Source: Rubrivivax sp.
Lineage (GTDB): Bacteria; Pseudomonadota; Gammaproteobacteria; Burkholderiales; Burkholderiaceae_C
Direction of reading: 5' to 3'
Length of the DNA stretch: 64,000 bases
Assembly (NCBI GenBank): GCA_027485165.1
Contig: JAIXRN010000050.1
Location: forward strand, 3,266-67,265
In this document: positions 36,481 through 49,563 of the stretch, in pieces
Layout: each line of letters starts with the position of its first letter
Position numbering within the stretch: position 1 is the first letter of the stretch
The notes under the pieces: model-generated
The model's input: only the letters and a program-made list of their open reading frames with translations
Database searches by the model: none
What the model was told of the DNA's origin: nothing
Translations under genes and position numbers: made by a program

Positions 36481-37656
36481 GTGGACTACCCTCAACGCGC
36501 TGGCCGGTACGTCCAGCAGGCCACGGGCTACAAGGCCTACCTGCCAGCGCCCCTGCCGCCGGAACCGCCGTTGCTGTACGACGGCGAATTGCAGACCCTG
36601 CTGTCAGGGGCAGACCGAGACATCGGACGGCTGGATGCCCTGGCCGCGCTGCTGCCCAACCCCGACCTGTTTGTGGCGATGTATGTCCGGCACGAAGCCG
36701 TCCTGTCGTCGCAGATCGAGGGCACGCAGAGCTCGCTGGAAGATGTGCTGGCGTTCGAAGTCGACGCCCTGCGCGATGACGCACCGCGCGACGTAGAGGA
36801 AGTGGTCAACTATGTTCGCGCGATGAACCATGGCCTCGCGCGCCTGAAGGACCTGCCGCTGTCGCTGCGCCTGTTGCGAGAAATCCATGCCGAACTGATG
36901 CGTGGCGTGCGCGGCGGCGATAAATCGCCGGGCGAATTCCGGGCCTCCCAGAATTGGATCGGCGGCGCTGGCAGTACCTTGCGCACGGCCAGCTTTGTAC
37001 CGCCGCCGGCTCACGAGTTGATGTCCTGCCTGGGACAGCTGGAAGTCTTCCTGCACGAAGGGCGCCAGACCGTGCCGCTGCTGGTGCGCTGCGCGCTGGC
37101 ACACGCACAGTTCGAGACCATCCACCCCTTCCTGGACGGCAACGGCCGTGTCGGCCGGCTATTGGTGACGCTGATGCTGTGTGAAGACGGCGCGCTATCG
37201 CGCCCTCTGCTGTATCTGTCGCTATACCTGAAAGCGCACCGCGCCGAGTATTACGACCGTCTCACCGCGATCCGTACCCAGGGCCACTGGGAAGCCTGGA
37301 CCGCCTTCTTCCTGCGCGGCGTGAGCCTGACCGCCAGGGCGGCGACGCACACGGCCCAGGCCATCGTCGCGCTGCGCGACGCGCATCGCGGATCGGTGCG
37401 CCGTAACGCCAAGGCGCTGGCGCTGCTGGACCACCTGATGCTGCAGCCCACGGTCAGCATCAGGCGCGTGGCCACCCTGCTGGGCTGTACCCAGCCCACG
37501 GCAGCCAAGCTGGTGGGCGACCTGGAAACGCGCGGCTGGCTGCGCGAAGTCACGGGTTATGGCCGCAACCGCCTGTGGCGCTACCAGCCTTACGTTGACC
37601 TGTTCCATGCCGACGCGCTGCAGGCCCTGGTGCCGCTGACCCCCACAAGCCCTTGA
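36481..37656 (+). CDS. Fic family protein (Fic_N-Fic-HTH, SoFic-like AMPylase)
   Basis: EAVLSSQIEGT, intact HPFLDGNGRVGR motif, RPLLYLS, EYYDRL and a C-terminal HTH-like region ending RNRLW.Y. Confidence 0.93.
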   Translation: MDYPQRAGRYVQQATGYKAYLPAPLPPEPPLLYDGELQTLLSGADRDIGRLDALAALLPNPDLFVAMYVRHEAVLSSQIEGTQSSLEDVLAFEVDALRDDAPRDVEEVVNYVRAMNHGLARLKDLPLSLRLLREIHAELMRGVRGGDKSPGEFRASQNWIGGAGSTLRTASFVPPPAHELMSCLGQLEVFLHEGRQTVPLLVRCALAHAQFETIHPFLDGNGRVGRLLVTLMLCEDGALSRPLLYLSLYLKAHRAEYYDRLTAIRTQGHWEAWTAFFLRGVSLTARAATHTAQAIVALRDAHRGSVRRNAKALALLDHLMLQPTVSIRRVATLLGCTQPTAAKLVGDLETRGWLREVTGYGRNRLWRYQPYVDLFHADALQALVPLTPTSP

Positions 37657-38210: not shown

Positions 38211-39125
38211 ATGCGCCCGCTGGACGAGAAGGACTTCGCCCTGGCGGCCGAGTTGCTGCACGAGGGCTTTCCACGCCTGCGGCCCGCGTTCTGGGCCGCG
38301 GCGCTGCAACGCCTGCAGCGCTACGGCGGCAACGCTCAGACCGGCGTGCCGCTGGGCTGGTTCATGCTGCAGGGTGATGAACCGGTGGGCGTGGTGCTGA
38401 CGCCAGCCAGCCTGCGCCAGAGGCCCGACGGCAGCAGCCAGTGCGTCGTCAATCTCAGCAGCTGGTACGTGCGGCCGGAATTCCGCTGGCGCGCCGGCTT
38501 CATGTTGCGGGGCGTGCTGAACGACGCCACCACCGTCTACACCGACCTCACGCCCACCCCGGAAGTGCAGAAGATGCTGCCCCTGTTGGGCTTCGATGCC
38601 GTCAACCGCGGCGTTGCCCTGCACCTGCTGCCGCTGCTGTGCCTGCACCCGGGCGGTGGCGGCCAGCTGCGGGTGCTGCAGCCGGGCGAACCCTGGCCAC
38701 ATGCCGGCCCGCCGCGCGAACAGATCGAAGCCCACCGTGAACTGGGTTGCCTGCCCCTGGTGCTGCAGCCCGCCACGGGCGCACCGCAGTTGCTGGTGCT
38801 GAAACTGTGCCGGCTGCGCGGGCTGCCGGCGGCGCAGCTGGTGTATGCCGACAGCATCTCGCAGCTGCTGGCGCACCGCGGCGCGCTGGCGCGGCTGCTG
38901 TTGCGCCAGGGCGTGCTGCTGTTCATGCATGACGCGCGCCAGCCGGGCAGCACGCCCACGCGCTGGTTCCGCCGTCGCGACCTGTGGTTCGTGCGCGGCT
39001 CCGGCTTTGCCGACCGCACCGACGCCTTCGCGTCCGAGCTGTGCATCATCCACGCCAGCCGCACACAGGCGCCTGCCGGGCCGGCCAGCCCCGACACGGC
39101 ACGCACGGCGGGCCCGGCTTGCTAG
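38211..39125 (+). CDS. GNAT-like acyltransferase of unknown substrate
   Basis: VNLSSWYVRPEFR and TDLTPTPEV..MLPLLGF resemble GNAT motifs A and B; it overlaps the flippase start. Confidence 0.55.
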   Translation: MRPLDEKDFALAAELLHEGFPRLRPAFWAAALQRLQRYGGNAQTGVPLGWFMLQGDEPVGVVLTPASLRQRPDGSSQCVVNLSSWYVRPEFRWRAGFMLRGVLNDATTVYTDLTPTPEVQKMLPLLGFDAVNRGVALHLLPLLCLHPGGGGQLRVLQPGEPWPHAGPPREQIEAHRELGCLPLVLQPATGAPQLLVLKLCRLRGLPAAQLVYADSISQLLAHRGALARLLLRQGVLLFMHDARQPGSTPTRWFRRRDLWFVRGSGFADRTDAFASELCIIHASRTQAPAGPASPDTARTAGPAC

Positions 39126-40576
39126 TCCGCCACACGCTGGCTTACCTGCCGGCGCAGCTGCTCAGCCCGCTGACGCAGCTGGTCGCGGCGCTGCTGCTGA
39201 CGCACGCGCTGGGCGCGGCCGACTACGGCCTGGTGATGCTGGTGTTCGCAGCCCAGGAAGTGGTGTTCCTGATCTGCCTGTCGTGGTGGACCACCTTCTA
39301 CCTGCGCTACGGCGGCCGGCTGAACCTGGGCGCCGACGGCCAGGCCCTGGCCAGCACCGAGGCCGCGGTTTTGCTGCTGTCTTCCTTGGCCCAGGTGGCC
39401 GTCACACTGGGCATCGTGCTGGCCACCGACGCCGGGCTACCGCTGGTCTTCTTCGCTGCGGCCTGTGCCTTCACCGTCAGCCGCAGCCTGCTGCAGTTCC
39501 TGGGCGAACGCGCGCGCCGCGAAGCCGCCATCGCCGCCTACACCGCCGTGCAGGTGGCCGGCCCGCTAGGCGGCCTGGGCCTGGTGGGGGTGCTGATGGC
39601 GCTGGACGCCGCCACCCCGGCGCGTGTGCTGGGTGCCTTCGCTTTGATGCAAGGCGCCGTGGGCCTGGCGGTGGCCGCACGGCTGCGCCTGCTGGTGCGC
39701 CCGCGCGCGCTGGACCACGCCGTGCTGCGCGCCGCCGCGCGCTTCGGCGGGCCGGTGGTGTTCGCGCATTCGCTCAGCTGGCTGGGCGGCAACGTCATCC
39801 GCTTTGTCGTGCACCACGGCGCTGGCGCGGCGGCCCTGGGCTTGATGTCGGTGGGCTGGGGCCTGGCCACACGGCTTTCAGGCGTGGCCGCGATGCTGGT
39901 GGCGGCAGCGGCCTACCCGCTGGCCGTGAAGACGATGGAAGCCGGCGACCCCGCCGGCGCCCGCCGGCAGATCGCCGACAACTCGGCCCTGCTGCTGGCG
40001 CTGCTGGCACCGGCCGGCTTCGGCTTCTGGGCGCTGGCGCCGGGCCTGGTGCCGGCCCTGGTGGCCCCCGAATACCACGCCGTGACGCTGCAGATCCTGC
40101 CCTGGGCGCTGCTGGGCGCCTGCGTGCGCAACCTGCGGCTGCACGGCTGGGATTCCTGCTACCTGCTGTTCGAAGCCCCGCGCGACATGGTCTGGCTGGA
40201 CGTCATCGAATCCACCGTGATGCTGCTGGCCGCCGTGCTGGGGCTGTGGTGGGCAGGCGTCTGGGGCGCTGTGGCCGCCAGCGCCTGGGCCATCTGCGCG
40301 CTGGCCGTGCTGGACGCGCTGTGGCTGCGCCACCGCTTCGGCCTGGTGCTGCCGATGGGGGTGTACGGGCGCGTGCTACTGGCCGCGGCGGCGATGGTGG
40401 GTGCGTTGCTGGGCGCGCAGGCGCTGGGCTGGCGCGCGGCGCCACAGGTCGGGCCGCTGCTGCTGGCGGCAGCGGCCGGGGCGGGGGTGTACGGGCTGGC
40501 GCTGGCGCTGCTGTTTCCGCAGCAGCGAAGCAGCGTCACGCGCTGGCTGCGCCAGCGGCGGCTGGCGGGGGCTTAG
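39119..40576 (+). CDS. Polysaccharide flippase (Wzx/MOP family)
   Basis: About 12-13 hydrophobic segments, N-terminal RHTLAYLPAQL, 'YGLVMLVFA' and AAYPLA; the TTG start is inferred. Confidence 0.75.
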   Translation: MLVRHTLAYLPAQLLSPLTQLVAALLLTHALGAADYGLVMLVFAAQEVVFLICLSWWTTFYLRYGGRLNLGADGQALASTEAAVLLLSSLAQVAVTLGIVLATDAGLPLVFFAAACAFTVSRSLLQFLGERARREAAIAAYTAVQVAGPLGGLGLVGVLMALDAATPARVLGAFALMQGAVGLAVAARLRLLVRPRALDHAVLRAAARFGGPVVFAHSLSWLGGNVIRFVVHHGAGAAALGLMSVGWGLATRLSGVAAMLVAAAAYPLAVKTMEAGDPAGARRQIADNSALLLALLAPAGFGFWALAPGLVPALVAPEYHAVTLQILPWALLGACVRNLRLHGWDSCYLLFEAPRDMVWLDVIESTVMLLAAVLGLWWAGVWGAVAASAWAICALAVLDALWLRHRFGLVLPMGVYGRVLLAAAAMVGALLGAQALGWRAAPQVGPLLLAAAAGAGVYGLALALLFPQQRSSVTRWLRQRRLAGA

Positions 40577-40675
40577 CCACGCGGCCTGCCGTTGGCGCTG
40601 GGCTGGGGCCAAGGTTTCAGCGACGGTTTGAACGAAGCCTTAGACTGCAACGCTCCCACTGCCCATACTGTCTAG

Positions 40676-41470
40676 CTAGCCACCGTTCCGACGTGTGAGC
40701 CGTGTTCGCAGACTCAGCAGGGAGATACCCATGGCAAACAGAACATATGTTGCGGGTTCAGGGATCGGGATGGCTTCCGAGATAAAGGCCGTACCGTTGG
40801 CCGCACTCAAACCCTGCCCACCGTAGTTCACCAACAGATTTGCCGCGCCAGTGAAGGTGTTCACGCTGTAGATTCCGGTGCCAGCAACAGCGTATAAGTT
40901 AATGTTGTCACTGGTTGCGAGCCCGAAGACCCTGTCGATACCGATGGGCCCCAGTGCCGTGCCAGCGCCAGTCGTGGTGTTGAGCCTGATCAGGCTGTCA
41001 GCGGTAGGCGATGAACTGGACAGGTACAGCGCCCCCCCAACAAAGGCCAGGTCGCCTGACGACCGGTAGGTTGTCCCGCCGTTTCCAATCAGGCTGGCAG
41101 CGCCGGTCGTAACGCTGATCGAGTAAAGGCTGCTGCTGGCAGCGTAGAGGTTTCCTGCGGAATCAAAAACCAGAGAGTTCAGGTTTGCTGCGCCCAAGTT
41201 GCCAACCAGCGTGATGGCTGCTGACGCCGGATTGATTCTGTAGAGTGAATTGGAACTGATTCCGTACAGGCTTCCGGCTGGGTCGAAAGCAATATCCGTC
41301 ATCGTGACGCGCATGACACCGACGATGGTCACGGCACCCGTGGCGACGTCAACCTTCCCGAGCCTTCCATCAGCGTCATCGATCCACAATGTTGGCTCTG
41401 CGCTCGCGGCACCGCCCAAAGCGGATGTGAGGAATCCGACGGCAAGACTCGTTACGATTTTCGATCTCAT
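40676..41470 (-). CDS. PEP-CTERM exosortase-target protein with beta-propeller-like repeats
   Basis: Signal peptide ending ASA; repeats of D(I/L)AF...LY; C-terminal IPEPATYVLFAMGISLLSLRTR (PEP, TM, basic tail); visibly lower GC than its flanks. Confidence 0.88.
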   Translation of the reverse strand: MRSKIVTSLAVGFLTSALGGAASAEPTLWIDDADGRLGKVDVATGAVTIVGVMRVTMTDIAFDPAGSLYGISSNSLYRINPASAAITLVGNLGAANLNSLVFDSAGNLYAASSSLYSISVTTGAASLIGNGGTTYRSSGDLAFVGGALYLSSSSPTADSLIRLNTTTGAGTALGPIGIDRVFGLATSDNINLYAVAGTGIYSVNTFTGAANLLVNYGGQGLSAANGTAFISEAIPIPEPATYVLFAMGISLLSLRTRLTRRNGG

Positions 41471-41561
41471 TTTTTCTCCCAAATTTACGATATGAACAAC
41501 TGGATCAAATAGAAAGGTCGCCCTGCTGCTGGATACTGTCATGACGCATCACCAAGAAACG

Positions 41562-41678
41562 TCATTCGATCCAGAAGCGTCGCCGCCAGGCCCGGCGATC
41601 GGTTTGCGCTCCTGCGCTGGCAGCCGATGCCGCCAGCGCCAGACAAACCGCGAACTGTTGGATGTTGTGTGTTCGCAT
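41562..41678 (-). pseudogene. Short ORF that is almost only a signal peptide (38 aa), likely a truncated secreted-protein gene
   Basis: MRTHNIQQFAVCLALAASAASAGAQTDRRAWRRRFWIE*, preceded by a purine-rich RBS (GGAGCAGGGAAGG). Confidence 0.45.
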
Positions 41679-41791
41679 GGCCTTCCCTGCTCCCTCTTTC
41701 GTCTTTCGCGTGATGACGGCTTGCCCCGTGTTGGCCGCCGTGGGCTGCCAGCCGGGCAGATGAACGATCGCCGCCGGCAGGCGCCCGCGTC

Positions 41792-41829
41792 CTCACGAAG
41801 CCTTCACGGACACTTCACGGGCTCTCAAG
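41792..41829. promoter_or_regulatory. 11-bp-periodic direct repeats (Y-TCACG x3 plus a degenerate CTCAAG), a candidate winged-helix binding site
   Basis: CTCACG at 41792, TTCACG at 41803 and TTCACG at 41814, in the divergent intergenic region before a wHTH regulator. Confidence 0.65.
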
Positions 41830-41989
41830 AACCCCCGGGTCGGGGGGTCAAGCCGGCGGCAGGCAGCGCAGCCGGCCAGCGCTGCAACGGCCAGAATCAA
41901 CGCGTCGCATCCGGCGCCTCAGACGGCAGGCATCGGCCCCAGTGCGCGCTTCGGTCGTGAAACCTGCGCCTTGATTCGCCAAAACCGCC

Positions 41990-44878
41990 GTGACGAACCC
42001 TGATCCGGGCGCGCCCGCTGACGCCGCGTCCGCCGGCTTGCGCTTCACGTTCGCCAATGTCGACTTCGACGCTGCCGAAGGCAGCCTGCAGGTGGGCGGC
42101 GTACGGGTCGACCTGGAACCGCGCCCGCTGCGGCTGCTAGCTGAAATGCTGCGCCACGCCGGCGAAGTCATGACGCGCGACGAGCTCATCGACAGCGTCT
42201 GGGAAGGTCGCGTCACGGTCGACCATGTCGTGGCCAATGCCGTGAGCAAGCTGCGCGCAGCCCTGGGCGCCGAGGGCGCAGCGCGGCTGCAGACGGTGCC
42301 GCGCATCGGCTACCGGCTGCTGGGGCCGGTGCAGCGCCACGCCCGGCTGGTGGACCCGAGCCCGCTGCTGCCTGGCCAGCCGCTGGCGGGGCGCGAAGGC
42401 TACGTGCTGGAAAAGGCGCTGGGCAACCGCCGCCGGCAGGACGTCTGGCTGGCCAGGCATTTGCAGTTGGGCCATCTGCGGGTGTTCAAGTTCGCGCAGG
42501 ATGGCGAACGTTTGTCGGCATTGAAGCGCGAATACACCCTTTACCGCGTCTTGACGCAGGAACTGGGCCCGCGTGAAGACTTCGCTCGCGTGCTGGACGC
42601 CAACTTCGCCCGTAGCCCCTGCTACCTGGAATGCGAATACGGCGGCGACAGCCTGCTGGACTGGGCGGGCAGCGGCGCAGGCCTGGCCGCGATGAGCCTG
42701 GACGAGCGCGTGGCGCTGTTCCTGCAGGCGGCGCGGGCGCTGGCCGCCGCGCACGGCGTGGGCGTGCTGCACAAGGACATCAAGCCCGCCAACATCCTGG
42801 TCAAGACCGCTGCGGGTGCGGCGGCGTCTAGCCCCGAAAGCCAGGCTGCGCACTGGCAGCTGTGCCTCACCGACTTCGGCAGCGGCCGGCTGCTGGACGC
42901 GGCGCGGCTGCAGGCCCTGGACATCACCGCCCTGGGCCTGACGCAGACGCAGGACCAGGTGCTGGCCGACGCCGGCAGCGGCACCCTGGCCTACATGGCG
43001 CCGGAACTGCTGGCGCGCCAGGCACCGACCACCCAGACCGACCTCTACGCGCTAGGCCTGGTGCTGCTGCAGATGGCGGTGGGCGACCTGCAGCAGACGC
43101 TGGCCCCGGGCTGGCAGCGGCAGCTGGCCGACCCGCTGCTGGCCGACGACGTGAGCAAGGCCACCGAAGGCCGGCCCGAAGACCGGCTGTCGTCGGTCGG
43201 TGAACTGGTGCAGCGGCTGGAACAGTTGCCGCAGCGGCGGCTGGCGCGCCAGCAGGCCGCCGCCGATGCCGCGCGGCAGCAGGCCATGGCCAGCCAGCTG
43301 GCGCGCAGCCAGGCCCGCAGGCCCTGGGTGGTGGCCGCGGTCGCCAGCCTGAGCCTGGGCCTGGTCTTCAGCCTGTTTCTTGCCGGCCGCGAACGCGCAG
43401 CGCAGCAGCGGGCCGACGAGCAATCGCGCCGCGCGCTGGCTGTGAACGACTTCCTGACCAAGGACTTGCTGGTCGCGGCCGATCTGCGGCAGACCCCCGG
43501 CGGCGACCGTCCGGTGACGATGCTCGACCTGCTGCGCCGCGGCTCGCAGGCCGCCGTGCAGCGCTTCGAAGGCCAGCCCCTGATGGAAGTGGCGGCACGC
43601 CACCACCTGGCACGCACCTTCAACGGCCTGTGGGCCAAGACCGAGGCCCGGGCCGAATACGACCGCGCGCTGGCGATGCTGCGGCCGCTGGTGCCGCCCG
43701 ACGACGACTTGCTGCTGACGATGGAACTGGAACGCCTGATCGTGGTGGCCGACCAGATCGAACGCGACGCGGCCCGGGCCGACCTGGACCGCATCGAAGC
43801 CGTGCTGTTGGCGTCGCTGGGCCCGGGGCGACTGCCGGCCGCGCCCGAGCTGGCGATGCTGCTGCTGCAATGCCGCGTCTACATGTTGCATGTGCAGGGT
43901 CGCCACCAGGACGAGCTGCCACTGGCCCGGCAGTGGGTGGCCATGGCCGACGCCACGGCCGGCACGCCGCTGGGGCGGCGCGTCGACGCGCGCGCCGCGC
44001 TGGCCGCGACACTGAGGGCGCTGGGCGACCCATCCGGCGCCGAACGCGTGTTCGCTGAACTGGCGCTGCCGCCCTTCGACCGTGCACGCGAAAGCCGGCT
44101 GGCGATCAGCAATTTCGAGATGACGAATGCCGGCTTGCTGCGCGACGAGGGTCGCCATGCCGAAGCGGAAGCCCTGCTCGCGAAGGTGCATGAACGCCTG
44201 ACACAGGACAAGCTGCCCAGCGCCTGGCACCAGGGCTACCTGGACGCCGAACGCGGCCACAACTTCCGCGCCTGGAGCCAGCGCGAAGGCCGCCCGCTGG
44301 ACCCGGCGGCCCAGCACTACCGGCAATCGGTCGACCATTTCCGGCGCGGCCTGGGCGACGAGCACCAGTTCGTGCGGGCGATGCAGCTGAACCTGGTGAC
44401 CGTCGACCTGACCTTGGCCCGCTACGACAGCGCTTTGGCCGAACTTCGCGACATGGAAGCCTGGATCGTGGCCCGCGCCAGCGCCCACACCCAGCGCCGC
44501 CTGCAGCTGATGTTCGGCCAGGCGCTGCTCGGCCTGGGCCGGCCTGAAGACGCGCTTGTCCACTTGCGCCGGGTGCCTGCGCCGACGCAAGAGCCGCCAA
44601 CCAGGCCGCCAGAGAGCTGGCAGGTGAACGGGCCGCTGCCGCCGATCGAGCTGCTGGCCTGGGACGCGCAGGCGCTGCAGGGCCTGGCCCTGTTGCAATC
44701 GCGCCAGGCAGCACAGGGCCAGCCGCTCTTGCGCCAGGCCGTCGACGTGCTCACGCGCACCGGCTGGCTGCCACGCGGCGACGCCAGCTTCGATGCCCTG
44801 CTGCGGGCTGAAGTCCGGGCCGCGCGGCGGGTTGAAACGACGCCGGATGGCGCGCGCTCGCCATCGCGTCAGCGTTAG
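41990..44878 (+). CDS. Winged-helix (OmpR/CadC type)-Ser/Thr kinase-TM-TPR-like protein
   Basis: LEPRPLRLL...SVWEGR...VSKLRAALG...TVPRIGYRL (trans_reg_C); kinase motifs FK, E, HKDIKPAN, DFG, YMAPE and DLYALG; one TM (WVVAAVASLSLGLVFSLFLA); helical repeats C-terminal. Confidence 0.88.
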   Translation: MTNPDPGAPADAASAGLRFTFANVDFDAAEGSLQVGGVRVDLEPRPLRLLAEMLRHAGEVMTRDELIDSVWEGRVTVDHVVANAVSKLRAALGAEGAARLQTVPRIGYRLLGPVQRHARLVDPSPLLPGQPLAGREGYVLEKALGNRRRQDVWLARHLQLGHLRVFKFAQDGERLSALKREYTLYRVLTQELGPREDFARVLDANFARSPCYLECEYGGDSLLDWAGSGAGLAAMSLDERVALFLQAARALAAAHGVGVLHKDIKPANILVKTAAGAAASSPESQAAHWQLCLTDFGSGRLLDAARLQALDITALGLTQTQDQVLADAGSGTLAYMAPELLARQAPTTQTDLYALGLVLLQMAVGDLQQTLAPGWQRQLADPLLADDVSKATEGRPEDRLSSVGELVQRLEQLPQRRLARQQAAADAARQQAMASQLARSQARRPWVVAAVASLSLGLVFSLFLAGRERAAQQRADEQSRRALAVNDFLTKDLLVAADLRQTPGGDRPVTMLDLLRRGSQAAVQRFEGQPLMEVAARHHLARTFNGLWAKTEARAEYDRALAMLRPLVPPDDDLLLTMELERLIVVADQIERDAARADLDRIEAVLLASLGPGRLPAAPELAMLLLQCRVYMLHVQGRHQDELPLARQWVAMADATAGTPLGRRVDARAALAATLRALGDPSGAERVFAELALPPFDRARESRLAISNFEMTNAGLLRDEGRHAEAEALLAKVHERLTQDKLPSAWHQGYLDAERGHNFRAWSQREGRPLDPAAQHYRQSVDHFRRGLGDEHQFVRAMQLNLVTVDLTLARYDSALAELRDMEAWIVARASAHTQRRLQLMFGQALLGLGRPEDALVHLRRVPAPTQEPPTRPPESWQVNGPLPPIELLAWDAQALQGLALLQSRQAAQGQPLLRQAVDVLTRTGWLPRGDASFDALLRAEVRAARRVETTPDGARSPSRQR

Positions 44879-44986: not shown

Positions 44987-46324
44987 ATGCGCCTTGTCCC
45001 TCTCGTCAGCGCTGCCATCGCCACCGCCTGTCTGTCGGTTTCCGTCGCCCAGGCCGCCCCCACCTGGATCACGATCGGCGAAAAGCCTTACCTGCAGCTG
45101 CTGAAGGTGGCCCCCGAAGTGCGCGCCGTGGCCAGCCGCCGCGTGCCGGTGATGAAGCCCGAACTGCGCGGCAGCAGCACCCTGGTGCAGGGCGCCGAAT
45201 CGGTCTACGCCGTGCAGGTGGATGACGAGGTGCTCGACCAGCTGTCGGAAGCCGTGCACCGCGAACTGCACCGCTGCGGCAGCTATGTGCGGCATGCATC
45301 CGAAGCCGAGGCCCTGGCCGTGCTGCACCGCCTGACGACGCCGGTCGCGCCCCAGCGCCTGCCCAGCTACGCAGTGGACAACCCCGAGCTGGTGAACCCG
45401 CGGCTGCCGCTGATGCAGGCCAGCAACATCCTGTCCACCATTACCCAGCTGCAGTCGTTCCAGAACCGCCGCCACAACAGCAGCCACGGCGCGAACGCGT
45501 CGAACTGGATCTTCAGCCAGTGGCAGGCGCTTAACCCTGGCAACCGCCGCGACGTGCGCGTGACGCAGACCACGCACACCACCACGCCACAGAAGTCGGT
45601 GGAATTCAACATCACCGGTTCGGGCAACAGCGGCGAGACCATCGTGCTGGGCGCGCACCTGGACAGTATCAACGGCGGCAGCAGCACGGCCGAGACCCAG
45701 CGCGCGCCGGGCGCCGACGACGACGCCAGCGGCGTGGCTTCGCTGACCGAAATCATCCGCGTGATGATGGCCAGCGGCTACACCCCCAAGCGCAACATCC
45801 GCTTCATCGCCTATGCGGCGGAAGAAGTGGGGCTGGTGGGTTCCCGCGCCATCGTCGCTGCGCTGCCCGGCCGGCGCGACAGGACCGTGGGCGTGCTGCA
45901 GCTGGACATGACGGCCTTCCAGGGCGACGCCACCGACCTGTGGATCTACACCGACTTCACCAACGCGTCGCAGAACCAGTTCCTGGCCAGCCTGGCCGCG
46001 ACTTACCTGCCCACGCTGACGGTGGGCTACGACTTCTGCGGCTACGGCTGTTCCGACCACGCCAGCTGGCACAACGCCGGCTACCCGGCGTCGTTCCCGT
46101 TCGAGGCCAGCGACGCCACGTTCAACTTCTCGCTGCACACCGTTAACGACACCACGGCCACGTTCGGCAACCAGGCTGACCATGCGCTGAAGTTCGCCCG
46201 TCTGGGCCTGGCCTACGCCATCGAACTGGCCAGCGACGGCACCCCGGCCGCCGCGGTGACGGGCGTGGCACCGGCAGTCCGCACCGCCACGGCAGCCGCC
46301 CCGACGCCGGCGCGCACGCGCTGA
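44987..46324 (+). CDS. Secreted M28 leucyl aminopeptidase
   Basis: Signal and propeptide; GAHLDS, GADDDASG, AAEEVG, QLDM and SDH Zn-ligand motifs. Confidence 0.92.
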   Translation: MRLVPLVSAAIATACLSVSVAQAAPTWITIGEKPYLQLLKVAPEVRAVASRRVPVMKPELRGSSTLVQGAESVYAVQVDDEVLDQLSEAVHRELHRCGSYVRHASEAEALAVLHRLTTPVAPQRLPSYAVDNPELVNPRLPLMQASNILSTITQLQSFQNRRHNSSHGANASNWIFSQWQALNPGNRRDVRVTQTTHTTTPQKSVEFNITGSGNSGETIVLGAHLDSINGGSSTAETQRAPGADDDASGVASLTEIIRVMMASGYTPKRNIRFIAYAAEEVGLVGSRAIVAALPGRRDRTVGVLQLDMTAFQGDATDLWIYTDFTNASQNQFLASLAATYLPTLTVGYDFCGYGCSDHASWHNAGYPASFPFEASDATFNFSLHTVNDTTATFGNQADHALKFARLGLAYAIELASDGTPAAAVTGVAPAVRTATAAAPTPARTR

Positions 46325-46385: not shown

Positions 46386-49364
46386 TCAGCGGCCCTGCAG
46401 CACCAGGCGCACGGCGCTGGCCACGTCCAGCGCCAGGCCCTGATGCCACAGGGCTTCGCAACGCTGCGCACCGATCTGCCGCGTCACCACGCCGCGCAGC
46501 CGGCGGATGTGGCGTTCGTCTTCCTGCACCAGCGGGCCGAACTGGCGGGTCCAGAAGACCGAGGCAAAGGCCATCAGCTGCACGGCCGCTTCAGGTTGGC
46601 CCAGCCGCGCCAGCACCCGCGGCGGGTTCCACAGCGCGTAGGCCAGGCCGTGGCGGAACCAGCGCTGCCAGCACAGCGCCAGGCAGCGGCGGTTGGCGTC
46701 CAGGGCGGCCTGCCACTGGCGCTGCTGGGCCAGCAGTTCGGCCATCGAGATGAGGCTGTCGATCTGCCCGATCCAGTCGCCTTCTGCCAGCGCCACCTGT
46801 TCGCACTGGCGGTAGGCGGCCATGGCTTCGGCGCTGCGCCCCAGCTGGCGCCAGCACTGGGCGCGGTTGCGCAGCCGCGCGTGCGCCCGACGCCGGTCGC
46901 CCAGCGCCAGCCACAGCGCCTGGGCCTGGGCGAACAGGGCTTCAGCCCCGGCCACGTCAGCGCCGGCTGCGCTGGCGTGCACATGGCCGGCCAGCACGCC
47001 CAGCTGCTGCAGCGCCAGCGCCTGCGCGGCCAGATCGCCGCTGGTGCGGGCCAGGTCCAGGGCTTCCTGCAGTTGCGCGCGCACCTGCGCGTGCTGCGGC
47101 GTGGCGCGGTCGGCAGCGCGGCCGGCCGCGATGTCCACCCAGGCCCGGCGCACCAGCGCGCGCGCCCGCGGCGCGGGTGCGCTACCGGCAGCGGCCAGAG
47201 CGGCGTCGGCATGCGCGCGCGCCTCGGCCACGAAGCCGGTGCCAAAGCGCAGATAGGCCAGCAGTTCGTGCGCGTCGGCGCGCAGCGGGTCGGCCGCGGG
47301 CAAGGTGCGCAGCGCGCTTTCCAGCGCCAGCAGCAGGCGCACCGGCAGGGCGTCGTGGTCGAAATGCGCGCGCAAGCTCACGGCCAGCTGTACCGCCTGG
47401 CGCGGCGCGCCATCCGCTTCGGCACTGGCCAGCATGGCGTGCACATGCGCCAGTTCGGGCGCCACGCGCGCCGGGCTGGGCAGTGGGCCCAGGTCGGCCG
47501 CCCAGCCCAGCAGCCAGTCGCGCAGCCGCGCACGCAGCGCAGCCGCCTGCGCGCCCGCGTGCTGCAGCGCAAATTCGCGCACGGGCTCGACGATGTCGAA
47601 GCGGGCGCTGTCGCTGGCACCGTCCAGCGGCCCCGATACGACCGCCCCGCCGCCCGTCGGGCTGCCCGAGGCCACGCGCACCAGCGAATGGTCGACCAGC
47701 GCGTCCAGCCGCGCCGCAGCCTGCGCCAGCGGGCTGGCCGTCACGGCGGCCACGGCGGCGGCGCTGGCGCTGCTGCCCATCACCGCCAGGGCTGTCAGGG
47801 TGTGCTGGCTGGCCGGGTCCAGCAGCTGCCAGCTCCAGGCGATGACCTGGGTCATCGACGCGTGGCGCGGGTCCAGCGCCGACCGCGCCCCGCCGCGTTC
47901 CAGCAGGCTCAGCTGGCCACCGCCGGCCGGCAGCGACAGCAGGCGCAGCAGTTCGGCTGGCGGAAAGCTGCGCACGCGCGAAGCCGCCAGCTCGATGGCC
48001 AGTGGCAGCCCGTGCAGCAGCCGCACCAGGCCGATGACAGCGGCACAGTGCCGTTCGGTGAGATGGAATTCGCTGCGCACCGCGCGCGCGCGGTCGGCAA
48101 ACAGGGCCACCGCCGGGTTGGCGGCGGCCTCGGCCAGGCCGCCCTCTTCGGGCGGCAGGGCCAGGGGCTCGGCCTGGAACAGCACTTCGCCGTCCAGCCC
48201 CAGGCGGCGGCGCGACGTCACCAAGATGCGCAGCTGCGGCAGCAGGGTCAGCAGCTCGGCCACCACGCTTTCGGCCCGGCCCACCAGCTGTTCAAAGTTG
48301 TCCAGCACCAGCAGCACGCGCAACCCCGACAGCGCAGCCTGCACGGCTTCGGGCCGGTCGGCACCGGGCAGGCGCAGCGCATGGGCGATGGCGTCCAGCA
48401 GCTGCGGCGCGTCCTGGCAGCCCACCAGGGACACGAAGGCCACGGCGTCGAAGCCCGCTGCTGCGACGCTGCCGCCGTCGGCCGGCCAAGACGGCGGGTG
48501 GCGCAGAGCCTGGGCCACTTCCACGCCCAGGCGGGTCTTGCCGCTGCCGCCCGGGCCCAGCAGGCTGACCAGGCGGTGCTGCAGCACCAGGGCGCGCAGC
48601 CGCGCGGTGGCCAGCTCGGCACCGAACAGCCGGGTCAGGTAGGCCGGCAACGGCGGGCCGACCGGGCTGTGGGGCAGGCTGGCCGAAGCGGCGGCCGGGG
48701 CCATCGAAGCGAGGGGGACTGCTGAAGCGGCCGAAGCGGCTGAAGCTGTGGAAGCCGCCGAAGCTGCTGAAGTGACTGAAGCGCCGGTGGCAGCGGAAGC
48801 CGAAGCGGAAGCGACCGCGCCAGCGGAAGGCAGCCGGCGCTGGTCGATCTGTTCGGCCAGCCCGGCCAGGCGCTGGCGTTCGGTCTCGATCCAGTCCCCG
48901 TAATGCCCGGGCATCAGCTCACCGCCATACAGCGCCGCCGCCTCGTCGGCCTGGCCGGCGCGGGCCAGGCGCTCGAAGCGCAGCACGTCGCAATCCAGCG
49001 CCCCGGGCGCCACGCGCACGTAGACGCGGTCGGCCAGCAGCACCCGGCTGCCGGGCTGGTGCGCGGGCTCGAGCAAGCTCTTCAGCGTCGACAAGGCCTG
49101 GCGCAGCCGGTTGCGGCCCACATCGGGCGCAGCGCCCGGCCACAGCAGTTCGGCCAGTTCTTCGCGCGCGTGGGCACGGCCGGGTGCCATCGCCAGCCTG
49201 GCCAGCAGCGCCGCCACGGCGCGCGACGGGAAACGGTCGAGGGTCTGGACGCCGTCGTGCGCACGCACGCCACCCAGCAGGCTGACCATCCAGCGCGCTT
49301 CGCCCTGCACGGCAGCAGCGCTGGCCGGGGCCTGGCGGAAGGGGGCGGGCGCCTGTGGGGGCAT
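46386..49364 (-). CDS. AfsR/SARP-like regulator (wHTH-BTAD-NB-ARC/STAND-TPR)
   Basis: LLARLA...REELAELLWP...RLRQALSTL (wHTH), LYGGELMPG..W (BTAD), GPGGSGKTRL, LVLDNFE, LHGLPLAIELAA and TPR-like tail. Confidence 0.88.
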   Translation of the reverse strand: MPPQAPAPFRQAPASAAAVQGEARWMVSLLGGVRAHDGVQTLDRFPSRAVAALLARLAMAPGRAHAREELAELLWPGAAPDVGRNRLRQALSTLKSLLEPAHQPGSRVLLADRVYVRVAPGALDCDVLRFERLARAGQADEAAALYGGELMPGHYGDWIETERQRLAGLAEQIDQRRLPSAGAVASASASAATGASVTSAASAASTASAASAASAVPLASMAPAAASASLPHSPVGPPLPAYLTRLFGAELATARLRALVLQHRLVSLLGPGGSGKTRLGVEVAQALRHPPSWPADGGSVAAAGFDAVAFVSLVGCQDAPQLLDAIAHALRLPGADRPEAVQAALSGLRVLLVLDNFEQLVGRAESVVAELLTLLPQLRILVTSRRRLGLDGEVLFQAEPLALPPEEGGLAEAAANPAVALFADRARAVRSEFHLTERHCAAVIGLVRLLHGLPLAIELAASRVRSFPPAELLRLLSLPAGGGQLSLLERGGARSALDPRHASMTQVIAWSWQLLDPASQHTLTALAVMGSSASAAAVAAVTASPLAQAAARLDALVDHSLVRVASGSPTGGGAVVSGPLDGASDSARFDIVEPVREFALQHAGAQAAALRARLRDWLLGWAADLGPLPSPARVAPELAHVHAMLASAEADGAPRQAVQLAVSLRAHFDHDALPVRLLLALESALRTLPAADPLRADAHELLAYLRFGTGFVAEARAHADAALAAAGSAPAPRARALVRRAWVDIAAGRAADRATPQHAQVRAQLQEALDLARTSGDLAAQALALQQLGVLAGHVHASAAGADVAGAEALFAQAQALWLALGDRRRAHARLRNRAQCWRQLGRSAEAMAAYRQCEQVALAEGDWIGQIDSLISMAELLAQQRQWQAALDANRRCLALCWQRWFRHGLAYALWNPPRVLARLGQPEAAVQLMAFASVFWTRQFGPLVQEDERHIRRLRGVVTRQIGAQRCEALWHQGLALDVASAVRLVLQGR
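48718..48812 (-). repeat. Degenerate 9-bp repeats encoding a Ser/Ala linker
   Basis: Seven consecutive NNNGAAGNN units from 48721 to 48783 encode SAA/STA repeats between BTAD and NB-ARC. Confidence 0.8.
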
Positions 49365-49563
49365 GGTGCTGCAGTCTAGGCGCGCGATGCAACGGGGTGG
49401 CGCCCCCACTGGGGGCGGCAGGGCAGGCGGCCACCCGGCCGGGGGGTGCGGGCATGGCGCCGGTACAGGGGGCCCGCTATCGAATGTCCTGATGCCCTGG
49501 GCGTCAGCTTGGCGTCAGAATGCGTTTTCCACAGGTTCCCCAGGCCTGCCAACCCCCCACGGG

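Follow-up and report, generated by a model that had tools for sequence, protein, structure and literature searches.

The 64,000-nt stretch of Rubrivivax sp. contig JAIXRN010000050.1 analysed here (hereafter the window, to which all coordinates refer) carries a gene for a 962-aa protein that joins a winged helix-turn-helix (wHTH) DNA-binding domain, a Hanks-type Ser/Thr kinase, a transmembrane (TM) helix and a TPR region, and the gene is preceded by three direct repeats of the pentamer TCACG. This one-polypeptide architecture had been put forward in an initial annotation made from the sequence alone, and each of its parts was recovered by Pfam, AlphaFold or hydropathy analysis (Table 1). The longest open reading frame (ORF) begins with the GTG at 41990, the earliest possible start, and the true start possibly lies up to ~17 codons later; position 41792, from which the initial annotation had counted the element, is not the gene start but the base immediately before the first TCACG.

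Table 1. Features of the locus in window coordinates
Feature	Coordinates	Strand	Basis or remark
Gene for the wHTH-Hanks kinase-TM-TPR protein	41990..44878	+	longest ORF in frame, 962 aa
CadC/OmpR-type winged helix-turn-helix, residues 17-118	42038..42343	+	Pfam, NCBIfam, PDB sequence, AlphaFold
Hanks-type Ser/Thr kinase, residues 138-411	42401..43222	+	Pfam Pkinase, conserved catalytic residues, Foldseek
Single transmembrane helix, residues 446-467	43325..43390	+	sole hydrophobic window; conserved RRPW motif precedes
Predicted periplasmic TPR-like solenoid, residues 511-949 (~440 aa)	43520..44836	+	AlphaFold, Foldseek
Predicted operator, three direct repeats, 11-bp spacing: GTCC-TCACG / CTTCACGG / CTTCACGG	41789..41821	+	unique, conserved
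Divergent gene for an exported PEP-CTERM protein, signal peptide, DUF4394-like region	40676..41470	-	Pfam PF14339, PF07589
M28 (LapA-like) aminopeptidase gene	44987-46324	+	directly downstream of the kinase gene
Gene for a 1007-aa AfsR-like protein	46386-49409	-	weak wHTH, NACHT/AAA and TPR matches
Fic/DOC protein gene, C-terminal HTH	36481-37656	+	~4 kb upstream; full-length PADLOC SoFic match
304-aa ORF	38211-39125	+	no family match
Polysaccharide-flippase-like gene	38984-40576	+	weak HfsF and Polysacc_synt matches

A repeat site that accompanies the kinase gene

The three TCACG pentamers stand at exactly 11-bp spacing, as initially annotated (TCACG-N6-TCACG-N6-TCACG, 41793-41819), within the fuller unit GTCC-TCACG-AAGCC-TTCACGG-ACAC-TTCACGG, with the kinase gene starting 171 bp downstream of it and the divergent PEP-CTERM gene starting 323 bp away. 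The triple occurs once in the window and in none of 100 dinucleotide-preserving shuffles of it; it is also the only perfect triple in the 4.63-Mb genome, for which our own composition estimate predicts ~0.008 copies, and the reversed genome sequence, searched as a control, gave no site at 0 or 1 mismatch. Short direct repeats of 5-7 bp with a 10-11 bp periodicity close to a promoter are the format of OmpR/PhoB operators.

Relatives of the protein are encoded at no fewer than 586 genome loci when one genome per species is scanned. The 120 best database matches all combine a wHTH with Pkinase (with or without recorded TPR) at ~900-940 aa and bear generic names. Members were found in the Xanthomonadales (Luteimonas, Rhodanobacter, Dokdonella, Pseudoxanthomonas and Thermomonas), in the Steroidobacteraceae, Nevskiales and Parahaliea, and in the Rubrivivax/Ideonella/Aquabacterium group of Burkholderiales. 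The distribution is patchy (8 of 60 sampled genomes of the same genus, 1 of 300 sampled genomes of the order), and the genome from which the window derives has one full-length copy. At two loci, L089 (Dokdonella ginsengisoli) and L066, two members stand in tandem or close together; paralogue expansion therefore occurs within genomes.

The site and its neighbourhood were compared across 80 of these homologous loci. A position weight matrix built from the sites found upstream of homologues scored higher than every shuffled control in 69 of the 80, so that the equivalent 11-bp triples anticipated near homologues by the initial annotation are indeed widespread. Exact TCACG triples at this spacing precede three of the genes (L011, L013 and L018), and more distant members have TAACG or TCAAG triples; a relaxed regular expression matched 44 of the 80 loci, invariably on the strand of the gene. 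With the strict pattern T[AC]A[AC]G taken three times, the 51 kb of upstream sequence gave 34 matches and the remaining 1.34 Mb of the loci gave 2. When the upstream regions of the closest relatives (46-59% protein identity) were aligned five ways, the repeats formed the sole conserved block. Measured from the end of the third repeat to the approximate start codon, the gap is 14-185 bp at every locus except L027 (391 bp); Burkholderiales members fall at 154-184 bp, and most of those in Gammaproteobacteria at 36-90 bp. Exactly one such site, located at the kinase gene, is present in each of two further genomes, a complete one of Rhodanobacter and that of L013. Collectively, this comparative evidence strongly supports the notion of a binding site, which we treat as a predicted operator. 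The opposite notion, that the repeat is a product of chance or of local duplication devoid of function, can appeal to its small size alone (15 specified bases) and is already refuted: the repeat recurs, similarly placed and oriented, in 69 of 80 loci, is expected to be rare in the genome and is absent from the shuffles. We assign this notion a negligible probability.

The sequence of the repeats varies in an ordered manner. The two half-sites nearest the gene match each other exactly in 53 of 65 loci, and they differ between subfamilies jointly with residues 79, 82, 83 and 86 of the recognition helix, which starts at residue 79 (DHVVANAVSKLR). Thus, the window protein, with H-A-N-S at these positions, is accompanied by TTCACG; H-A-T-G is paired with TTCAAG, N-A-N-A with CTAAC(G/C), K-P-N-T/N with GTAACG, A-A-N-S with CTCACC and S-T-K-A with TTCCGAC. 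The four residues occupy one face of the helix (i, i+3, i+4, i+7) and align with His66, Thr69, Gln70 and Ser73 of CadC, so that the DNA-contacting His66 and Thr69, which CadC requires for its function (PMC5430869), correspond to positions that are variable here. In Dokdonella and Lysobacteraceae, paralogues of different subfamilies each have their own type of site. Such subfamily-matched sites fit the prediction of a private operator that would be read by the winged helix encoded in cis. Among the operators of L011-L090, the distal repeat in most subfamilies (e.g. at L041, L024 and L035) reads (G)TC(C/G)TCACG while the proximal pair changes in concert.

A predicted membrane-spanning receptor with a conserved kinase core

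The full-length AlphaFold model, built on 96 homologues (mean pLDDT 87), divides the protein into the wHTH (residues 17-118), the kinase (138-411), a connecting helix (413-440), a long helix comprising the TM segment and a stalk (447-497) and a series of helical hairpins (511-949). The wHTH is modelled at pLDDT >90 and matches Trans_reg_C at residues 39-110 (E 2.8e-14); CadC is the best NCBIfam model for the N-terminus, and the closest PDB sequence is the DNA-binding domain of Escherichia coli CadC (5ju7, E 8e-14). No BTAD domain, which follows the wHTH in SARP/AfsR regulators, was matched by Pfam at E <= 0.01.

Residues 446-467 provide the only 19-residue window with a mean Kyte-Doolittle hydropathy above 1.6, and across the family the flanks of this segment carry a net charge of +3.4 on the N-terminal side versus +0.5 on the C-terminal side. 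The single segment and its flanking charges point to an N-in/C-out topology, in which the wHTH and kinase would be cytoplasmic and the TPR domain periplasmic, so that the extracytoplasmic TPR sensor envisaged in the initial annotation holds as a prediction. All-alpha hairpin repeats fill residues 511-949 of the model, and a separate AlphaFold model of the C-terminal 472 residues reached a pLDDT of 86 and a pTM of 0.83. Matches to TPR_12 and TPR_10 fall below the gathering cut-off in the window protein and are recorded for most homologues. Foldseek aligned the C-terminal fold with LGN, NprR, RapI, CNOT10 and the periplasmic part of the anti-sigma factor DdvA, that is, with generic TPR solenoids only, among which LGN, NprR and RapI bind peptides or proteins; a PDB sequence search with the periplasmic domain gave no match.

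The kinase domain is matched by Pkinase at residues 234-367 (E 1.5e-16), and Foldseek relates its fold to Stk1, PknB, PknA, PknI and PknF. The motifs quoted in the initial annotation were all located, as LHKDIKPAN, DFG, YMAPE and the Gly-rich loop LGNRRRQDV. The catalytic core is complete, comprising the beta3 Lys167 (VFKF), the alphaC Glu181 (KRE), HKD at 261-263 and Asn268 in the catalytic loop, DFG at 295-297 and APE at 337-339. In 96 aligned homologues, only 34-52% identical to the window protein, K167, E181, D263, N268, D295, P338 and E339 are invariant, and F296 and A337 are at least 90% conserved. The Gly-rich loop does not follow the GxGxxG pattern: in LGNRRRQ, an Arg replaces the second Gly. 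The degeneracy is real, as initially annotated, and proves to be a trait of the family, in which GxGxx[GSA] is kept by only 22 of the 96 members and lost in 74; the non-RD HKD motif is a family trait as well.

These deviations lend themselves to a reading of the kinase as a dead scaffold, that is, a pseudokinase within a ToxR/CadC-like activator, the fold merely relaying dimerisation from the TPR domain to the wHTH. In addition to the widespread loss of the Gly loop pattern (GNRRRQ here), a non-RD HKD implies that no activation-loop phosphorylation is expected, and the Foldseek matches include PknI, which we take to be a kinase of low activity. Nevertheless, the (near-)invariance of Lys167, Glu181, Asp263, Asn268, Asp295 and APE among sequences this divergent is difficult to account for unless the domain binds nucleotide or Mg and probably carries out phosphotransfer, and activity is known from homologous kinase-TM-TPR proteins, PknS among them (PMC13147305). 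Because the catalytic core is so strictly conserved, we favour a kinase that is probably working, albeit atypical, and consider the pseudokinase option unlikely, less probable than the initial annotation had allowed. A role in defence was also considered and rejected, the PADLOC matches (PD-T4-6 and mad6) spanning the generic kinase domain only.

The promoter under control and the divergent neighbour

The predicted site is most likely the protein's own operator, which would make the gene autoregulated: the site keeps a fixed orientation relative to the kinase gene, and autoregulation is the part of the interpretation that is conserved because only the kinase gene always adjoins the site. The intergenic region contains no sigma-70 consensus promoter. 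Between the third repeat and candidate -10 boxes there are 14-55 bp, a spacing that differs by lineage, and a shared class I or class II promoter geometry was therefore rejected. A hairpin downstream of the site was likewise discarded, being no better than shuffles (z = -0.86).

The initial annotation had instead named the adjacent exported-protein gene as the target. The product of this gene, whose start is probably the Met at 41470 (MRSKIVTSLAVGFL...), ends in a PEP-CTERM tail (PF07589, E 8e-5). A gene of this kind adjoins none of the 80 homologues: tblastn with the window's PEP-CTERM, M28, SARP-like, flippase-like and 304-aa proteins found no match in these loci, and a regular expression for the PEP-CTERM tail gave only spurious matches near the homologues. 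What recurs is the arrangement rather than the family. Within 61 homologous loci, we recorded divergent ORFs starting no more than 450 bp from the distal repeat, and a coding-like ORF of this description was present in 52, at a median distance of 70 bp. By crude regular-expression and hydropathy tests for signal peptides and lipoboxes, 23 of these ORFs have a lipobox and 42 (~80%) a lipobox or a hydrophobic N-terminus, compared with 10.5% and 44%, respectively, of the other genes in the same loci. The products are diverse (28 unrelated BLAST clusters among 53 divergent neighbours in a first-pass call set) and include, in the Burkholderiales relatives, a lipoprotein with Ig I-set repeats and, in Xanthomonadales, lipoproteins that have no Pfam match.

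Two further cases come from the genome that holds the window, in which at least 31 PEP-CTERM tails were detected by regular expression: a CadC-like wHTH-TM-TPR protein (C63:84424-88089) and a pair formed by an ECF43-type sigma factor and a kinase-TM-TPR protein (C45:89682-94000) each stand head to head with a PEP-CTERM gene. Since divergent exported genes are common around the homologues and these two loci repeat the pattern, a regulator facing an exported protein is a real theme; in this respect the initial annotation is partly borne out, an exported neighbour being divergently placed in most loci and the PEP-CTERM gene itself not being conserved. It is plausible that the divergent exported protein or lipoprotein gene is a second target or that its product is a co-sensor, and either role is possible for the PEP-CTERM protein of the window.

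The same observations allow for a reversal of priorities, whereby the repeats would serve mainly as an activator site for the divergent exported-protein gene (here that of the PEP-CTERM protein), in the way that ToxR or CadC switches on a nearby target, and autoregulation would be incidental. The frequency, proximity and enriched export signals of the divergent ORFs are compatible with this arrangement, as are the two additional regulators with TPR ectodomains that face PEP-CTERM genes and the geometry in Burkholderiales, where the site is 61-214 bp from the Ig-repeat lipoprotein gene and 154-184 bp from the kinase gene. However, the partner families are unrelated, the PEP-CTERM gene is specific to the window among the loci compared and is almost twice as far from the site as the kinase gene, ~9 of the 61 loci retain the site but show no close divergent ORF, and the export calls are crude. 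We regard divergent activation as the primary function as possible but doubtful, and prefer autoregulation.

Relation to known regulators and a proposed mechanism

Direct repeats of short half-sites spaced by one helical turn are familiar from several groups of winged-helix regulators. ToxR recognizes TNAAA-N5-TNAAA and TcpP TGTAA-N6-TGTAA, and the operators of OmpR/PhoB proteins (pho box, PmrA box) consist of hexamer-N5-hexamer units, the 11-bp periodicity being that expected for head-to-tail wHTH dimers. The site format proposed in the initial annotation agrees with this ToxR/TcpP/PhoB type. The present protein differs from OmpR/PhoB regulators in that it has no receiver domain, and its site from theirs in having three repeats, the distal of which does not co-vary. 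With ToxR, TcpP and CadC it shares an N-terminal OmpR/CadC-type wHTH (Pfam, NCBIfam, PDB), predicted to be cytoplasmic, one TM helix, a C-terminal sensor predicted to be periplasmic and half-sites spaced by a helical turn. In contrast to these proteins, whose sensors signal to the wHTH directly, with no phosphotransfer module in between, the window protein has a Hanks kinase of ~275 aa, not known from any characterized member, between wHTH and membrane; its sensor is a 440-aa TPR solenoid, and the site that is conserved belongs to the gene of the regulator itself. Furthermore, the CadC sites in Cad1 have a head-to-head arrangement and do not form direct repeats (PMC5430869). ToxR/TcpP/CadC is the family that comes nearest in DNA-binding domain, topology and site format, but the window protein is not a plain member because that family has no kinase.

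The remainder of the protein has its counterpart elsewhere. PknS combines a cytoplasmic kinase, one TM helix and periplasmic TPRs and phosphorylates EcfK to control transcription (PMC13147305), and the kinase-TM-periplasmic TPR layout is common to the PknS-EcfK system of X. citri, the PknT-EcfP system of V. parahaemolyticus and the window protein, in which kinase, TM helix and predicted periplasmic sensor follow in the same order. Paralogous kinase-TM-TPR genes in the window's genome match residues 196-705, and one of them is next to an ECF43-type sigma gene (C45). Judged from these sequence relationships, the kinase-TM-TPR module is homologous to the receptor kinases whose substrate is an ECF43 sigma factor with a gene of its own. 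In PknS and PknT, however, the sigma factor is encoded by a separate adjacent gene and the kinase has an N-terminal extension of ~60-83 aa, the place that is taken here by the wHTH; the window kinase is, moreover, non-RD with a degenerate Gly loop. No ECF43 sigma gene adjoins the window kinase, whose neighbours encode the PEP-CTERM protein and the M28 peptidase, and around the 80 homologues no sigma-like cluster was seen to recur, only a few clusters having been run through Pfam.

In pairs such as AfsK-AfsR and PknH-EmbR, a Hanks kinase phosphorylates an OmpR/SARP-type regulator in trans. The coupling of a Ser/Thr kinase to an OmpR-family winged helix that reads 11-bp direct repeats is the same; the difference is that kinase and regulator are separate there and that AfsR and EmbR are soluble proteins with a BTAD, which was not found here. 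AfsR also contains TPRs (PMC10936776). Hybrid transmembrane transcription regulators of the Bacteroides HTCS type resemble the window protein in uniting sensor, kinase and DNA-binding domain in one membrane protein but employ a His kinase, a receiver domain and an AraC-type HTH (PMC10269533); in a census of such transmembrane regulators, Pkinase was listed for only 27, without discussion (PMC10269533). In the open-access literature searched, we found no characterized wHTH-kinase-TPR protein, in agreement with the initial annotation.

Taking the above into account, we consider it fairly probable that the window protein is a single-pass inner-membrane receptor kinase and transcription factor in one, autoregulated through the TCACG operator and gated by its sensor via the kinase. 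The winged helix would bind the three repeats upstream of its own gene, most likely as a head-to-tail pair on the two gene-proximal repeats with a third contact at the distal one, and would thereby regulate this gene, with possible co-regulation of the divergent exported-protein gene from the same site. A periplasmic protein or peptide held in the TPR groove could alter the oligomeric state of the kinase, which might then autophosphorylate, modify the attached winged helix or linker, or act on another substrate; phosphorylation would gate either DNA binding or the recruitment of RNA polymerase. Of the ToxR-like activator proposed initially, the architecture, the predicted topology and the conserved candidate site are retained, and the neighbouring PEP-CTERM gene as target is not conserved; the gating of the DNA-binding domain by the kinase is something we infer.

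Several observations weigh against this scheme. The core of the site changes only 5 times on a 64-row tree, a test on independent pairs has 1-4 pairs to draw upon and lacks power, and the joint pattern of helix residues and half-sites could stem from shared inheritance. In 37 of 65 loci the distal repeat reads TCACG irrespective of the type of helix, which a single-reader model does not explain. TCAC(G/C) repeats at 11-bp spacing precede an unrelated membrane-protein gene in 9 genomes of the same genus in which no family member was found. No sigma-70 consensus was found, and the candidate -10 boxes lie at distances that are inconsistent between lineages. Finally, the Arg at the second Gly of the Gly-rich loop means that catalytic competence is not assured.

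The membrane-protein gene came to attention through the best of a few additional sites in the window's own genome in one-mismatch scans, four TCAYG repeats at C96:12948-12990, which recurs at the orthologous promoter in the genome of L012. As a regulon target it was rejected, the same promoter having its repeats in the 9 genomes without a detected family member; another regulator in the genus therefore reads a similar motif. This factor, or the AfsR-like protein encoded downstream in the window, might also be the reader of the TCACG repeats at the kinase gene, in which case the site would belong to another OmpR/SARP-type regulator. SARP-type regulators bind 11-bp-spaced direct repeats too, and a foreign reader would accommodate the constancy of the distal repeat. 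By contrast, the site accompanies the kinase gene in Burkholderiales, Xanthomonadales, Nevskiales, Steroidobacterales and Halieaceae, the SARP-like protein of the window has no tblastn match in the 80 loci, the proximal half-sites change in concert with the helix encoded in cis, and each genome examined has one site, at the kinase gene. A separate reader is, in our judgement, improbable, and the winged helix of the protein itself stays the preferred one.

As known so far, bacterial Hanks kinases reach transcription only through separate substrates (sigma factors, SARPs and response regulators), and ToxR/CadC regulators are thought to act without phosphotransfer; the wHTH-kinase-TPR family merges both designs. 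Built from known modules, this family is large, widespread, unnamed in annotation and unstudied. What the present analysis adds is a precise and unique predicted operator, candidate specificity residues and a recurrent exported partner gene, which together render the transcriptional output of the kinase directly testable, something that is rarely possible for bacterial Ser/Thr kinases, and the family might become a source of orthogonal sensor-promoter pairs. More tentatively, and with a good deal of doubt, one can picture a one-polypeptide design in which a TPR-driven non-RD kinase would phosphorylate its own wHTH, or RNA polymerase at the promoter, on a private operator, a four-residue half-site code would be assigned to each paralogue, and the divergent exported protein, as ligand or partner, would close a feedback loop between export and transcription.

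The other genes around the locus are heterogeneous, the window mixing housekeeping genes (pntAB and purB) with signalling genes. Neither the M28 aminopeptidase gene directly downstream of the kinase gene nor the gene for the 1007-aa AfsR-like protein is conserved near homologues, and the latter protein has no PADLOC match. The Fic/DOC protein gives a full-length match to SoFic (E 8e-119), which makes its gene a candidate for anti-phage defence. The 304-aa ORF overlaps the start of the flippase-like gene by ~140 bp, the start codons being uncertain. Over 40500-41999, a region that covers the PEP-CTERM gene and the intergenic sequence, the G+C content is 0.59-0.61 versus 0.68-0.75 on both flanks, and this region may be a small acquired island. 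Finally, the repeats outside the family (loci L108-L118 and C96), which read TCAC(G/C) or TCATG, precede a conserved gene for a membrane protein of ~213 aa (motif RWDDHRYYHH) that is divergent from a glycosyltransferase gene and located beside a class-III aminotransferase-like gene, and they occur in genomes with and without the wHTH-kinase.

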